Source: a virus. Taken from it: a DNA stretch of 42,174 nucleotides. Each line of letters begins with the position of its first letter. The first letter of the stretch is position 1. A model generated the notes under the pieces. It was not told the origin of the DNA, made no database searches, and saw nothing but the letters and a program-made list of their open reading frames with translations. A program made the translations under genes and the position numbers. This document shows, in pieces, positions 7,693 to 35,808 of the stretch. Where the stretch lies: the IMG/VR virus record IMGVR_UViG_3300029532_000009, positions 1-42,174 of that record; one strand, given 5' to 3'.

Positions 7693-8469
7693 TTAGGCGC
7701 AGCTGCCGCAGCCGCAACCGGTGCCGCAGTTACCGTACTGGTAAGGTGCAGGAACCGGGAATGCGGGCACGGGGCGCGGATTGTAGTAGGCCAGCTGACC
7801 GCTCATGTAGGCCTTGAGCGTTTCGTTCTGGGCTGCCTGAGATGCCGCAAGCTGTGCTGCGAACAGCTGCTGACCCTGCTCAGCGATCTTTGCGTCCTTT
7901 GCCTCGATGCGCTGTGCGGTCAGGGCGTCAAGGATGGCGCGGGCGTTCTGGTTCTGGTTGTCGATGATGTCCCGGGTGGTGTTCTGCACCGTGTTCCGGG
8001 TCTCGCAGGACTGGGTGGCCAAATTGTAGTTGACGCCCTGAATGGCAGAGCGGTTCTCGCAGCAACACTCCTGCTGCTGCATCTGCATGGCAAACAGCTG
8101 CTGCATGAACGCCGCCTGCTGGTTTGCGCGGCTGATCTCTGCGGACATAAAGCCGTTGTTCACGGTCTGCTGCACGCCGTTGACAAGCTGCGCCTGCTGG
8201 TAGAAGCCATCACACATGCCGTTGTTGATACCATCCATCTTGCGCTCGATGTTGGCAAAATCGGAGGTCAGGACGTAGCCGTCAACGACACCGGCACCGG
8301 TGTTGCCATTGCCTCCCCAGTTGCTGCCCCAGCCGCCGCAGAAGGCGAACAGGAACAGGATGATGATCCACCATGCGCCATCATTGCCAAAGCCAAAGCC
8401 GTTGCCACCATTGGTGTTTGCGGGCTGAACAGGCATGGTCAGAACCGCAGAATCGGAAGAAAGAGACAT
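7693..8469 (-). CDS. Membrane-anchored Q/N-rich coiled-coil protein with Cys-rich C-terminal tail
   Basis: 258 aa with AAAGGAG RBS. N-terminus GGNGFGFGNDGAWWIIILFLFAFCGGWGSNWGGNGN (TM helix with Gly-rich flanks). Long Q/N-rich middle with a CCC motif. C-terminus YQYGNCGTGCGCGSCA. Confidence 0.6.
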   Translation of the reverse strand: MSLSSDSAVLTMPVQPANTNGGNGFGFGNDGAWWIIILFLFAFCGGWGSNWGGNGNTGAGVVDGYVLTSDFANIERKMDGINNGMCDGFYQQAQLVNGVQQTVNNGFMSAEISRANQQAAFMQQLFAMQMQQQECCCENRSAIQGVNYNLATQSCETRNTVQNTTRDIIDNQNQNARAILDALTAQRIEAKDAKIAEQGQQLFAAQLAASQAAQNETLKAYMSGQLAYYNPRPVPAFPVPAPYQYGNCGTGCGCGSCA

Positions 8470-26065: not shown

Positions 26066-26142
26066 TGGTGCCGCTTGTGGGGCTTGAACCCACGGCCCCC
26101 GGATTAAAAGTCCGGTGCTCTCCCAGATTGAGCTAAAACGGC
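26066..26142 (-). tRNA. tRNA-Lys (anticodon UUU), CCA encoded
   Basis: Hand-folded cloverleaf: GCCGTTT TA GCTC AATCTGGGA GAGC A CCGGA CTTTTAA TCCGG GGGCC GTGGG TTCAAGC CCCAC AAGCGGC A CCA. Confidence 0.85.
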
Positions 26143-33245: not shown

Positions 33246-33726
33246 TGTCGTCCTCTTCCTTTGGCAGAAGATCCACATCGTCAGGCGGGCTGAGGTCTGC
33301 GGCGGCATTCAGGGCCTCCACAAGGCCATCGTCCGGGACTTCTATGCTATTCTGGTCTCCCAGCATGGCAAACTTGTCCACGATGGTGCCAAACGCCGTT
33401 GACAGCTGCGGCAGTGTTGCTTCCGCGATCTTGTCCGGGTCGGCCATCGCTTTCAGGTACAGCCCGAGAAGCTCTTGTGCTTCTCCTTGCTTGCTCTCCA
33501 TGTAAGAAAGCATGTCCTTCGAGTTTTCCCGTTTTTTTTGTGCACACAAGCGCGCACTCTCCGGGTCTTCCTTTACGACTTTCTTAACGGTCGCGTCCGA
33601 AACGTCATTCAGCTTTGCGGCTGCACGGTAGCTTTGGAGCTGCACATAGTCCGCAACGATCTTCTTTTTTTGCTTATCTGTCAGCCGCCGTGCGCCCACC
33701 GCCACCACCTCTCTAAACTCATACAA
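33232..33726 (-). CDS. terS: Terminase small subunit
   Basis: 164 aa upstream of and overlapping TerL. N-terminal HTH (LTDKQKKKIVADYVQLQSYRAAAKLNDVSDATVKKVV) and an acidic tail. A GTG start about 24 nt downstream is possible. Confidence 0.7.
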   Translation of the reverse strand: MYEFREVVAVGARRLTDKQKKKIVADYVQLQSYRAAAKLNDVSDATVKKVVKEDPESARLCAQKKRENSKDMLSYMESKQGEAQELLGLYLKAMADPDKIAEATLPQLSTAFGTIVDKFAMLGDQNSIEVPDDGLVEALNAAADLSPPDDVDLLPKEEDDNAEK

Positions 33727-33769
33727 AAGAAAAACCGCCCGGAAACCCGAACGGTCAAAATATCGAATG

Positions 33770-33843
33770 TGCCGCTTGCAGGAATCGAACCCGCTACCCC
33801 CGGATTAAAAGTCCGGTGCTCTGCCAGACTGAGCTAAAGCGGC
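33770..33843 (-). tRNA. tRNA-Lys (anticodon UUU), no encoded CCA
   Basis: GCCGCTT TA GCTC AGTCTGGCA GAGC A CCGGA CTTTTAA TCCGG GGGTA GCGGG TTCGATT CCTGC AAGCGGC A. The anticodon arm is identical to the copy at 26066..26142. Confidence 0.85.
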
Positions 33844-33919
33844 ATAAGAAAAACCAGCTTTGCTGCATGGAGCTCATCATGCAAAAAGCTGGTTTTTAAT
33901 CGTATTGTATCAGCAGCGG

Positions 33920-34147
33920 TTAATCCGCACGGATAGCAGGCCGTGCTCCTTGGATACAGCCACGGCCTCCGATCTCTGCCCGAGGCTCGCGTTTTGTGTG
34001 GTCTGCACGGAAACCGAAACACCGCGCATAGCGCACAAAGTGGCTTTCTTTGTTGCTGATCGGTAAGGCCGAGAGGATAAGGCCAGCGCCGAGACGCGTC
34101 AAAAATTTTGCCATGTCGCAAATCAGTTCTTTCAAGCGCTCAAACAT
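33920..34147 (-). CDS. Small ORF inside the tRNA block (uncertain)
   Basis: ATG 34147 lies 6 nt after GGAGAGGAGG. MFERLKELICDMAKFLTRLGAGLILSALPISNKE... The C-terminal half is Arg/Gly-rich and may not be coding. Hairpins lie on both sides (34169-34187; 33850-33898). Confidence 0.3.
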   Translation of the reverse strand: MFERLKELICDMAKFLTRLGAGLILSALPISNKESHFVRYARCFGFRADHTKREPRAEIGGRGCIQGARPAIRAD

Positions 34148-34199
34148 TTGTATGCCTCCTCTCCAAAAGTGTCCACTGCGGACACTCTAAAATCACGCT

Positions 34200-34335
34200 A
34201 GCCGCCAGCTGGATTTGAACCAGCACCCACGGAACGGATGTGCGCAGTGGCTGGCTGTGCAGTGATGTTCCCGTGGTGTCACCAACGTTGTCCCGCCTTA
34301 AATGGGCGGCGCTCTTCCAGTTGAGCTATGACGGC
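34200..34335 (-). ncRNA. 136-nt non-canonical tRNA-like gene (Lys-like anticodon loop with A33, about 68-nt insertion in the variable region)
   Basis: GCCGTCA TA GCTC AACTGGAA GAGC G CCGCC CATTTAA GGCGG [68 nt] GCTGG TTCAAAT CCAGC TGGCGGC T. The insertion contains a ~10-bp helix, CCACGGGAAC...GTTCCGTGG. Confidence 0.55.
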
Positions 34336-34459
34336 ATATAAGCAGCGCCCCGCATTCAGTTACGTTGGACAAGCGTCAAACGGTGGAGCGCCGCTGCATC
34401 TGGAACTTTCGCCGCCAGATGCCCGGCTATCTGCGCAGCCCCCTCACAGGGTACGCAGC

Positions 34460-34537
34460 TGGCATTCCCGGCAGGGACCGAGCCTGCAGCCTCTGGTTTT
34501 GGAGACCAGCGCTCTACCAATTTTGAGCTACGGGAAT
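34460..34537 (-). tRNA. tRNA-Trp (anticodon CCA), CCA encoded
   Basis: ATTCCCG TA GCTC AAAATTGGTA GAGC G CTGGT CTCCAAA ACCAG AGGCT GCAGG CTCGGTC CCTGC CGGGAAT G CCA. The A1:U72 pair and G73 are as in bacterial tRNA-Trp. The T loop is atypical (C54, G58). Confidence 0.8.
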
Positions 34538-34544
34538 ATAAAAA

Positions 34545-34613
34545 GCCGCCCTTGGAATCGAACCAGCCGTGTCTACGCACACGCGCCGCGCTCCAAATTG
34601 CGCTCAGGCGGCC
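34545..34613 (-). ncRNA. Degenerate tRNA-like element (about 68 nt)
   Basis: Good acceptor stem (GCCGCCT/GGGCGGC), canonical D arm (GCGC AATTTGGA GCGC) and T loop TTCGATT. The T stem has a bulge, and the anticodon region folds only as CGTGT/ACACG with a 6-nt loop. Confidence 0.4.
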
Positions 34614-34649
34614 ATATAAAAACAGCTCCGGTTCTCCGCCGGGGCTGTT
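34614..34649 (-). terminator. Rho-independent terminator inside the tRNA block
   Basis: 11-bp stem aacagctccgg/ccggggctgtt (one G:U pair). On the minus strand it is followed by TTTTTATAT. Confidence 0.6.
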
Positions 34650-34765
34650 GGTTGGCGCACATCCTGTCAGGAAAGCTACACCTTGGCAAGGATTCTAAGG
34701 CCTTTTCTTGGCACGGGAGGTTGCACGTGCGGCCTTGCGGGTTGTCTAGTCCATGCGCCATACGG

Positions 34766-34836
34766 TGCGATACGGCGGAATCGAACCGCCTCCTGTCTCT
34801 CATGAGCGGCAGCCTGCCTTTGTGTCAGTGTATCGC
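34766..34836 (-). ncRNA. Degenerate tRNA-like element (71 nt) containing CAT
   Basis: Perfect acceptor stem GCGATAC/GTATCGC and T arm GGCGG TTCGATT CCGCC. The D stem is only CTG/CAG. I could not fold an anticodon stem around ...GCTCATGAG... Confidence 0.4.
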
Positions 34837-35033
34837 ATAGAAGCAGCCCGCGAAACGGTGAAGGGGAGCGGGGCAAAGCATGAAACCCGCCGGGAAGGCC
34901 GTTCCGGAGACTGCGTGCATCGGTTTGCCTTTTCGGCTTTGCCGATGGTACCATGATAAGCCTTGAGCCGATTAGAAGTAAATCCCAAGGCATGTAAAAA
35001 TAAACCGCAGTTTTGTTGTGTAAAATGTACAAA

Positions 35034-35531
35034 TCACCCGAGATTCAGTTCCGTGGTGATCTCAGCCAGCTGCTCAAGTCCGTCAGAAACCGCCTGAGAG
35101 ACCTGGCACGGCTTTGAATAGCCCACGATCCGGGCAATTTCTGCCTGCCTTTTTCCTTCCACAAAATACAGGATCAGGCAGCGGCTGCGCTTGATGGACG
35201 CCGGGTCTGCATGGAGCATGTAGGCCACTTCAATGGCTTTCTTCTGCATCTCGGCATACTGGCATTTCAGCTCGTGCAGATGCTGCTCGGCATCCATGGC
35301 GGCGTCGCTGTTCCGGCCTACCTTGTCGCTGGTTCCGGAGCGGCCGGGTGCGCCGGAAGTCCCGGATGTGGTTGAGGTGGCTGCGTTTTTCAGACTTGAG
35401 ATGCGTTCCTGCTGCTGGCGAATCAGCGCCCGCATTTTCGGCAGGCGCTCGAACCAGTCCCGCAGCTCTTTCACATTGCTGGCTTCGCCCGGCTTGGGTG
35501 CATCACTCTCAGGTATCCATGTGATGGTCAT
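35034..35531 (-). CDS. Late-gene regulator candidate, sigma-70 region-4-like HTH
   Basis: ATG 35531 follows AAAGGAG. Coiled-coil N-half. C-terminus SIKRSRCLILYFVEGKRQAEIARIVGYSKPCQVSQAVSDGLEQL. It is the last gene before the tRNA block and terminase. Confidence 0.55.
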   Translation of the reverse strand: MTITWIPESDAPKPGEASNVKELRDWFERLPKMRALIRQQQERISSLKNAATSTTSGTSGAPGRSGTSDKVGRNSDAAMDAEQHLHELKCQYAEMQKKAIEVAYMLHADPASIKRSRCLILYFVEGKRQAEIARIVGYSKPCQVSQAVSDGLEQLAEITTELNLG

Positions 35532-35808
35532 TATTACTCCTTTCTTCAAAATCGCAACAATATTCGGGCGGATTTATGTATCCTTCGTCTTTGTCACCGC
35601 TCTGGCAGATATAGTGATATCCGGATTCTGACGCCCCAAATTTTTGCTTTAAGAATACGCACCGGTCGCAAAGGCAAGGTTTGTTTCGATTGAGCCCCCG
35701 CTTGAAATATTCAATTGGGTTGCCATCGCTAAGAACAAACCAGATAAAAAGCCCTGCAAGTGTTGCCATGAACAGCGTGCTTGCAACTTCAAATAGCATA
35801 TCAAGCAT
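35509..35808 (-). CDS. Membrane-anchored Cys-rich small protein
   Basis: ATG 35808 follows GGAGG. TM helix ASTLFMATLAGLFIWFVL, then CLCDRCVFLK...YICQSGD...YCCDF. Confidence 0.5.
   Translation of the reverse strand: MLDMLFEVASTLFMATLAGLFIWFVLSDGNPIEYFKRGLNRNKPCLCDRCVFLKQKFGASESGYHYICQSGDKDEGYINPPEYCCDFEERSNNDHHMDT

Follow-up and report, generated by a model that had tools for sequence, protein, structure and literature searches.

A tRNA-derived phage RNA with no U33 and a 68-nucleotide insert in its variable region

Introduction

Why would a phage carry a gene with all the arms of a transfer RNA (tRNA), a Lys-like anticodon loop without the usual U33, and a long stretch of additional RNA in the variable region? 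The question is raised by IMG/VR virus record IMGVR_UViG_3300029532_000009, whose 42,174 nucleotides (nt) were analysed here as a whole (hereafter, the window) and which holds, on its minus strand at 34200..34335, a 136-nt tRNA-like gene that we call the long tRNA. A sequence-only reading of the window had described this gene and offered several explanations, ranging from a decoy for tRNA-targeting enzymes to a decaying pseudogene. We find that the long tRNA is a tRNA-derived phage RNA that is structurally unprecedented, and we tentatively favour the reading that it would mimic decoding tRNAs without decoding itself, acting against a host nuclease that cuts anticodon arms.

Fold and conservation of the long tRNA

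Rfam matches the window with its tRNA family, RF00005, at exactly the ends of the long tRNA (46.0 bits against a gathering score of 29; E value 8.5e-7 for the whole window), and the alignment spans model positions 1-71 with a single long insertion in the variable region. ARAGORN, run over the window, does not call the gene. Both programs had been named as checks in the sequence-only reading, and because ARAGORN passes it over, the long tRNA may be unannotated or mislabelled in many genomes.

On the minus strand, the order is GCCGUCA UA GCUC AACUGGAA GAGC G CCGCC CAUUUAA GGCGG, then 68 nt, then GCUGG UUCAAAU CCAGC UGGCGGC U. The acceptor stem, with its 5' strand GCCGUCA at 34329..34335 and its partner UGGCGGC at 34201-34207, had been called perfect; its 7 base pairs (bp) do form throughout, but pair 5:68 is a U.G wobble. 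The D arm GCUC-AACUGGAA-GAGC (34311..34326, with A14, A15 and G18G19), the 5-bp anticodon stem of the arm CCGCC-CAUUUAA-GGCGG (34293..34309) and the T arm GCUGG-UUCAAAU-CCAGC (34208..34224) can be read directly, as had been claimed, and are matched by RF00005. The same holds on direct reading for the loop, with A33 at 34303 and the anticodon UUU at 34300-34302, and for the distance between anticodon stem and T stem, earlier put at about 68 nt and here exactly 68 (RNA positions 44-111). The anticodon, A37 and A38 are the same as in the canonical tRNA-Lys of the phage. A shifted anticodon register, giving either a UUA ochre suppressor or CAU, was rejected on a hand check of the sequence, in which the shifted stems are unpaired. 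As read from the sequence, the discriminator base is U (34200) and no CCA is encoded at the 3' end. The minimum free energy (MFE) of the whole RNA is -53.9 kcal/mol (z = -2.15), and this fold reproduces both the cloverleaf and a helix within the insert.

An exact 20-mer spanning the anticodon arm is present in at least 118 IMG/VR contigs, as well as in two Faecalibacterium metagenome-assembled genomes (MAGs) and one bin labelled Oxalobacter. Matches in Streptomyces and Solirubrobacterales genomes (L123, L124) consist of the 20-mer only, with no tRNA body, and were rejected as chance. A total of 173 copies of the long tRNA were gathered from gut phage contigs and Faecalibacterium prophages, 110 of which are distinct; a search of INPHARED matched only two fragmentary, unannotated gut contigs. 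One homologue, in the human faecal phage contig MT839005 (locus L001), is the same 136-nt gene in the same gene order, scores 49.8 bits on RF00005 and carries a compensatory change in the T stem.

Conservation was read from 69 non-redundant copies aligned with MAFFT (alignment A1). The proposed structure is paired in 92.4% of cells, compared with 29-45% in slid registers, and compensatory double changes occur at 16 pairs, in 179 cells. The acceptor stem is 99.8% paired, with CG/UA and AU/GC exchanges at pairs 6:67 and 7:66; the D stem is 100% paired, with one CG-to-UA exchange; and the T stem is 99.7% paired, pair 51:63 being UA in 31 copies, CG in 31 and UG in 6. The anticodon stem is 100% paired and has one compensatory variant, CAGCC/GGCUG, in which the loop CAUUUAA is unchanged. 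RNAalifold on its own predicts the cloverleaf together with P1, the first helix of the insert. U8, A14, the D-loop and T-loop bases that form the elbow, and G53 U54 U55 C56 are invariant. The D loop is shorter by 3 nt in clades with insert types D-G (see below). The discriminator is not conserved, being U in 57, A in 42, G in 2 and C in 1 of 102 distinct copies.

Covariation among relatives had been proposed beforehand as a check on this locus, and both the insert and its compensatory pairs turn out to be conserved. The pattern of changes argues that the long tRNA is real, neither a product of chance nor of decay, and under selection. It leaves very little room for the suggestion that the gene is a decaying tRNA pseudogene, or a neutral insertion hitch-hiking in a successful phage lineage. 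The carrier phages are admittedly close kin (large terminase, TerL, at least 95% identical), so that some of the conservation is recent common descent; the element is dispensable, and a few copies have stem mismatches, deletions or a damaged T loop. Compensatory exchanges are nevertheless found repeatedly in P1 and in the acceptor, D and T stems, besides the one in the anticodon stem, through which the loop was kept, and the same architecture persists where the insert sequences are unrelated and in a second lineage of phages, whose neighbouring genes differ. Because the stems are paired and covarying and the bases of the tertiary core invariant, we regard the pseudogene explanation, which had been among those first offered, as contradicted and scarcely credible.

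Anatomy of the insert

The variable region reads G44 A45, insert, G46 U48. The insert is placed exactly between nt 45 and 46 because the A15-U48 pair and the C13-G22-G46 triple are then possible, the core nucleotides G46 and U48 (34225..34226) following directly after it; at its other end it adjoins the 3' strand of the anticodon stem. It is made up of a 15-nt linker, helix P1, hairpin P2 and a probable pseudoknot between the linker and the P2 loop.

G44 and the linker, ACAACGUUGGUGACA, occupy 34277..34292. The linker is replaced by UCAACAUUGAUGAUA in other clades and is the most conserved segment outside the tRNA proper, with most positions invariant or nearly so and several strictly invariant among the 69 sequences. 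The 5' strand of P1, CCACGGGA, lies at 34269..34276 and pairs with UUCCGUGG at 34227-34234. A helix of about 10 bp had been described here; the helix exists, but its conserved part is 8 bp, one G.U included, and the additional AAC/GUU pairs beside it are limited to the window and a few relatives. P1 is kept across five insert types whose sequences are wholly different: CCACGGGA/UUCCGUGG in the window-like type A, CCACA/UGUGG in type B, CAUC/GAUG in type C, CGCAAGAG/CUCUUGUG in type D and CACGAGA/UUUCGUG in type E. P2 is the hairpin UGCACAG-CCAGCCA-CUGCGCA (34241..34261, apical loop 34248-34254), and MFE folds give an apical hairpin with a loop of 7-9 nt in every insert type.

The proposed pseudoknot joins UGGU of the linker (34281-34284) to GCCA in the P2 loop (34248-34251), strands that covary. 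Types A-C have the pairing UGGU:ACCA, types E-G have UGAU:AUCA and type D has GAC:GUC, and the register is 97.8% paired (GC 55/AU 12; UA 64/CG 2), compared with 4-79% in slid registers. The pseudoknot is therefore probably present, and we rate it as supported rather than proven because the independent evolutionary events behind the covariation are few. Within the linker, pair 7:15 covaries as well (GC 51, AU 17, GU 1, none unpaired in the 69 sequences). A 3-bp mini-hairpin at this place was rejected, since pair 8:14 is broken in 19 of the 69 and 7:15 alone is retained; RNAalifold offers an alternative in which linker A14-C15 pair with G46-U48, which is mutually exclusive with the 7:15 pair.

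Inserts of the unrelated types A, D and E share one length, exactly 68 nt, whereas those of type B have 82-87 nt; among relatives the variable region as a whole has 53-87 nt, plus one deletion derivative of 13 nt. From these sequence comparisons we conclude that the insert is a selected structure. Individual variants depart from it in several ways. In L056 and L201, which carry a variant of type A, the 3' junction is changed from CACAUCCAUU to GUGAUGUU, and P1 and the 5' junction form one long perfect helix; in L061 the P2 hairpin has lost 15 nt and the RNA is 121 nt long.

The 13-nt derivative, L126 (Faecalibacterium MAG CAKSXW010000001.1, locus positions ~7882-7960), is an A33 tRNA without the insert, whose variable region is GGGACGUGUGGGU. 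ARAGORN labels it tRNA-Lys(UUU), and an HNH endonuclease gene lies just downstream. It resembles a type B insert deleted between GGCGGG repeats.

A further explanation offered at the outset was a processed precursor. About 64 nt between A45 and G46 would then be removed and the ends rejoined, giving a class I tRNA of 72 nt whose variable loop has 4 nt. Exact removal would indeed leave G44-A45-G46-U48, a normal variable loop, and L126 is a natural copy with a short variable region, even though it looks like a product of deletion between repeats. To our knowledge, no bacterial enzyme system splices at this position. The sequence-only reading had itself set aside a group I or canonical tRNA intron, and rightly so: 68 nt is far below the size of a group I intron, the insert sits in the variable region, and a search of 33600-34900 gave no intron, ribozyme or other Rfam family at E values up to 10. 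Nor was the insert found in any other tRNA body, so that it does not appear to be mobile. When G was disallowed at position 43, scans for the linker of types A-C gave 57 matches, all in unrelated coding DNA; when it was disallowed at position 42, they gave only the CAGCC/GGCUG variant of the same tRNA. Splicing would also leave A33 in place, and we consider a processed precursor unsupported and highly improbable.

Anticodon loop

In IMG/VR, a scan for the same anticodon stem with loops of the form C-N-UUUAA returned no version with U33, C33 or G33. Wider scans of viral and metagenome collections were then anchored in the linker, with the loop left free. They revealed the loop GAGUUAA, with A33 and the Asn-type anticodon GUU, at L199 and L206; the arm CCGC-U(U/G)UUGCA-GGCGG, which is 1 nt shorter and has either a 6-nt loop or a 4-bp stem, at 15 loci; and the loop UCGCUAA, with C33 and the Ser (AGY)-type anticodon GCU, in five contigs of one lineage. 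This lineage was the only true match to a 7-nt loop without A33 in the metagenome scan, the other 20 being unrelated GC-rich DNA. Its members (L389, L391, L393, L394 and L397) also have the T loop UGCAAGU, with G55, a G1.U72 pair and an A31.G39 mismatch, and may represent either a degenerating copy or a further-diverged functional form.

No family member with U33 was found in the viral and metagenome scans: the position is A33, C33 or part of a 6-nt loop. Every loop in these scans ended in A38 and every 7-nt loop had U36, so that all 7-nt loops fit N32-(A or C)33-NNU36-A37-A38. Judged by its bases, each 7-nt loop is a copy of the loop of a tRNA that decodes ANN codons (Lys, Asn or Ser-AGY), minus the uridine of the U-turn. 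As the T loop, the D loop and the tertiary core are intact, only the anticodon loop is defective.

That no standard tRNA class has this architecture had been stated before and stands, both position 33 and the size of the variable region being non-standard. Decoding tRNAs have U33, and their variable region measures 4-5 nt in class I and about 10-25 nt in class II; the long tRNA departs from them in both respects. The nearest likeness is to the class II tRNAs (Leu, Ser, bacterial Tyr and Sec), which also carry their extra arm between nt 45 and 46 and share with the long tRNA U8, A14, A15-U48, G18G19 and T54-Psi55-C56. Their arm, however, is a single stem-loop of about 10-25 nt that starts right after nt 45, whereas the insert of the long tRNA comprises a 15-nt linker, an 8-bp helix, internal loops, a second hairpin and the probable pseudoknot, in 68-87 nt. 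In addition, the anticodon types of the family (Lys, Asn and Ser-GCU) are mostly outside class II, and U33 is absent.

Could such an RNA still decode? It might be a nuclease-resistant tRNA-Lys, charged by lysyl-tRNA synthetase (LysRS) and reading AAA/AAG in place of depleted host tRNA-Lys, with A33, the stem sequence G39-G40-C41 and the bulky arm making it uncleavable, as for the tRNA-Lys of phage T5 against the PARIS defence system. The features for processing, for the L-shape and for elongation-factor binding are all intact, UUU, A37 and A38 are shared with the canonical tRNA-Lys of the phage, the insert-less copy L126 passes as a plain tRNA-Lys(UUU) in ARAGORN, and the insert occupies the extra-arm site of class II tRNAs, where the ribosome tolerates an arm. 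Moreover, most carriers have no other tRNA-Lys within 2.5 kb, and published phage tRNAs act by replacement (PMC12409363, PMC12445682). A decoder under selection would, however, be expected to retain the U-turn, whereas U33 is found in no member and one clade has a 6-nt loop. The discriminator varies among U, A and G although A73 is an identity element for LysRS, two canonical tRNA-Lys(UUU) genes are already present in the window, and the pseudoknotted arm, at 68-87 nt, exceeds every known class II arm in length by a factor of about three. On balance, we hold a decoding role to be rather unlikely.

Possible function of the long tRNA

The reading that we favour, with less than even confidence, is that the long tRNA is a non-decoding tRNA mimic that serves as bait for, or inhibitor of, a host anticodon-arm nuclease of the PARIS AriB, OLD or PrrC type. 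A decoy or inhibitor and a nuclease-resistant Lys tRNA had both been put forward in the sequence-only reading and both fit the data; the former is preferred because U33 is systematically lost, one clade has a 6-nt loop, the discriminator is variable and the same genome has ordinary tRNA-Lys genes.

The RNA keeps the L-shaped scaffold (acceptor, D and T arms and core tertiary nucleotides) and would presumably be processed and stabilised as a tRNA is. Its anticodon loop, apart from position 33, reproduces that of a real ANN-decoding tRNA, Lys-UUU here and Asn-GUU or Ser-GCU in relatives. In this mechanism, the RNA would not decode but would compete for a host factor that reads the anticodon stem-loop of these tRNAs, most likely an anti-phage nuclease that attacks anticodon arms as PARIS AriB, OLD, PrrC or RloC do. 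Specificity for the target would come from the anticodon loop, the extra domain might add affinity or block cleavage, and the loss of U33 might keep the RNA off the ribosome or make its loop uncleavable.

PARIS AriB cuts the tRNAs Lys(UUU), Thr(UGU) as well as Asn(GUU) between nt 40 and 41, recognising U36-A-A-U plus the D loop, and variants of tRNA-Lys, tRNA-Thr and tRNA-Asn from phage T5 neutralise it (PMC12409363). P2-OLD cuts the anticodon stem at 28/29 and after nt 40, and a phage tRNA-Thr(UGU) is resistant (PMC12445682). The cassettes of the phage family studied here (Lys-UUU, Thr-UGU and an Asn-GUU-like loop) closely overlap the AriB target set, and the insert emerges beside the 3' strand of the anticodon stem, which is where PARIS AriB and P2-OLD cut.

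The known defence-evading phage tRNAs, namely T5 tRNA-Lys, tRNA-Thr and tRNA-Asn against PARIS AriB and a phage tRNA-Thr against P2-OLD (PMC12409363, PMC11464382, PMC12445682, PMC10264068), resemble the long tRNA in being phage-borne accessory genes with the anticodons Lys UUU and Asn GUU (Thr UGU in the sister cassette) and with an anticodon stem-loop altered relative to canonical tRNAs. They differ in being decoders of normal size, with U33 and no inserted domain, which replace depleted host tRNA. A pure decoy role for phage tRNAs has so far been suggested only, not demonstrated.

Other RNAs that go beyond ordinary decoding by mimicry, such as transfer-messenger RNA (tmRNA) and viral tRNA-like structures (TLS), likewise combine a tRNA-shaped module with pseudoknotted RNA. 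However, tmRNA has a tag open reading frame (ORF) and no anticodon arm, whereas the anticodon arm of the long tRNA is complete; ARAGORN found no tmRNA in the window, and the best Rfam match of the long tRNA is tRNA. TLS form the 3' ends of RNA virus genomes, unlike the long tRNA, a stand-alone gene in a DNA phage. The bacterial Y RNA-like YrlA and the T4 'species 1/2' RNAs are stable RNAs of about 100-140 nt with tRNA-like modules, encoded beside tRNA genes, some of them in phages, and their functions are regulatory or unknown. The long tRNA has no sequence or Rfam match to either; YrlA has a helix that binds Ro in place of the anticodon arm, an arm that the long tRNA keeps, its own addition being in the variable region. 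A literature search found no description of an insert-bearing tRNA of this kind or of phage tRNAs without U33.

Several points weigh against the proposed mimicry. It assumes both that the RNA imitates host tRNAs and that a matching nuclease is present. The loop (U/G)UUGCA of the 6-nt-loop clade departs from the ANN-decoder pattern. Older substitution work on tRNA-Phe reportedly found that changes of U33 leave some ribosome function in vitro, and for this reason A33 alone is no proof against decoding. The existence of L126, an A33 copy without the insert, implies that the insert is not needed for the role of the A33 body, and the covariation behind the pseudoknot reflects few independent evolutionary events. 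Finally, clustering of neighbouring ORFs across insert types found no dedicated protein partner.

If the mimicry reading holds, a broader and more doubtful step would be that these U33-less mimics, with swappable loops (Lys, Asn, Ser or other) and a pseudoknotted domain that traps or blocks the nuclease, are the first of a class of RNA anti-defence factors, in effect a programmable decoy. Systems that cleave tRNA (such as PARIS, OLD, PrrC, retron effectors, Schlafen-like nucleases and Cas12a3/Cas13) have come to be viewed as a major branch of bacterial immunity, to which phages are known to respond with replacement tRNAs and tRNA repair enzymes. Inhibition of the nuclease by RNA mimicry would, if true, be a third strategy and a rare case of an anti-defence factor made of RNA rather than protein. 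The element is abundant among the phages that infect Faecalibacterium, which is a key commensal of the human gut. Should the RNA decode after all, a natural tRNA that combines A33 with a 68-nt arm would still be without precedent. The long tRNA also shows that a tRNA variable region is able to house a folded domain of about 70-90 nt, and its natural set of anticodon loops without U33 is of interest for tRNA engineering and RNA scaffolds.

Genomic setting

The window is a complete temperate genome of siphovirus type, with an integrase, repressor, anti-repressor, tape-measure protein, tail fibre, portal and large terminase; this gut siphovirus of Faecalibacterium type carries the long tRNA as an accessory gene. 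The long tRNA belongs to an array of RNA genes at the head of the late/packaging module, bordered upstream by the late regulator (35034-35549), with the packaging genes on the other side. On the minus strand, the array comprises a tRNA-like RNA, a second tRNA-like RNA, tRNA-Trp, a 127-nt spacer, the long tRNA, a 75-codon ORF and tRNA-Lys; promoter-like sites lie upstream of it at ~34950-35025, and a terminator scan places a strong terminator at 33733-33756. ARAGORN calls tRNA-Trp(CCA) at 34460-34537 and the canonical tRNA-Lys(UUU) at 33769-33843, both on the minus strand, as well as a second canonical tRNA-Lys(UUU) on the same strand at 26066-26142 (70.3 bits), amid structural genes and far from the array. 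The genome thus has two normal Lys tRNAs in total, in addition to the putative A33 mimic.

TerL was used to survey the best 80 (at least 95% identical) of 544 IMG/VR relatives. The long tRNA is present in 32 of these 80 phages, and 35 have the complete flank without it. In two relatives, L187 and L191, its slot holds a canonical tRNA-Thr(UGU); in L187 this gene is preceded by the same 127-nt spacer and shares its first 25 nt with the long tRNA. A slot 493 nt downstream also varies among sister phages, holding Lys(UUU), Met(CAU) or Thr(UGU). As judged from these alleles, the long tRNA is an accessory, exchangeable cassette. In the second phage lineage, among other neighbours, it again lies between a sigma-like late regulator and HNH/terminase genes. 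The clustering of neighbouring ORFs across insert types gave this synteny only, with the late regulator upstream and HNH/terminase downstream, and PHROGs showed no RNA ligase, kinase, aminoacyl-tRNA synthetase or nucleotidyltransferase among the 20 ORFs tested.

The constant position bears on a last explanation, in which the tRNA body is a scaffold, used for RNase P/Z processing and stability, that carries a functional domain unrelated to tRNA-targeting defence. The linker, P1 and P2 would then be the active part and might, for example, act as an aptamer, sequester a protein or regulate the late/packaging operon that follows the gene. This would fit the linker being the most conserved non-tRNA part, the insert architecture kept across lineages, the unvarying place between late regulator and HNH/terminase in two phage lineages, and an array in which a structured spacer and two further non-canonical tRNA-like RNAs also occur. 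It would leave unexplained why the loop is an exact copy of a tRNA loop minus U33 that switches between Lys-, Asn- and Ser-like forms, and the insert matches no Rfam family. Because the long tRNA is absent from about half of the near-identical phages, it is not essential for late gene expression. We judge a scaffold for an unrelated domain to be unlikely.

The 127-nt spacer between tRNA-Trp and the long tRNA (34336..34462, minus strand) folds into three strong hairpins, with an MFE of -58.2 kcal/mol (z = -3.0) that none of 200 shuffled sequences reached; it is conserved and may be a separate small RNA or a promoter/leader. A hammerhead ribozyme considered in the spacer was rejected: CUGACGAG...GAAA in L001 was taken as chance, and the window has CUGUGAG there and no Rfam ribozyme. 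Just downstream of the long tRNA, the hairpin AGUGUCC-GCAG-UGGACACUUUU (34165..34186, minus strand), read from the sequence and unflagged by the consensus terminator scan, might serve in processing or as a weak terminator; a clearer terminator hairpin is found in L001, in the alternative cassette that lies downstream there. The 75-codon ORF (33920-34147, minus strand) has a strong ribosome-binding site, GGAGAGGAGG, 7 nt before its ATG and no PHROG match. It occurs only with the cassette variant in which the discriminator U of the long tRNA is followed by AGCGUGAUUUUAGAGUGUCC.

Two further RNAs of the array, both on the minus strand, are non-canonical. In the gene at approximately 34766-34837, both the 7-bp acceptor stem (GCGAUAC/GUAUCGC) and the T arm (GGCGG-UUCGAUU-CCGCC) are perfect and the end ACC(G/A) is encoded, whereas the D/anticodon region, with CUCAUGA in it, is odd; Rfam matches the gene to tRNA-Sec at only 21 bits, and at least three allelic forms are found in sister phages (GCGAUAC.., GCGAGGUU.. 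and GCGAGAU..). The gene at 34544-34613 has the acceptor stem GCCGCCU/GGGCGGC, a normal D arm, a 6-nt 'anticodon' loop (9 nt in the allele of L001) and a T stem, GCUGG/CCAAG, whose mismatches are conserved. Most phages of the TerL group carry this gene, among them those without the long tRNA.

Other variation was observed around tRNA-Trp in sister phages. About 198 nt upstream of the long tRNA in L072 and L117, tRNA-Trp(CCA) is replaced by a tRNA with a CUA anticodon, labelled 'tRNA-Pyl' by ARAGORN; it might act as an amber suppressor, a hint that part of the phage group recodes TAG. Upstream of tRNA-Trp, L032, L144 and L158 carry an odd tRNA with an encoded ACCA end (ARAGORN 'tRNA-???(attg)'), whose 8-nt loop, CCAUUGAA, contains CAUUGAA, with A at the would-be U33, and whose anticodon 'stem' consists of the direct repeat AGCAGC.

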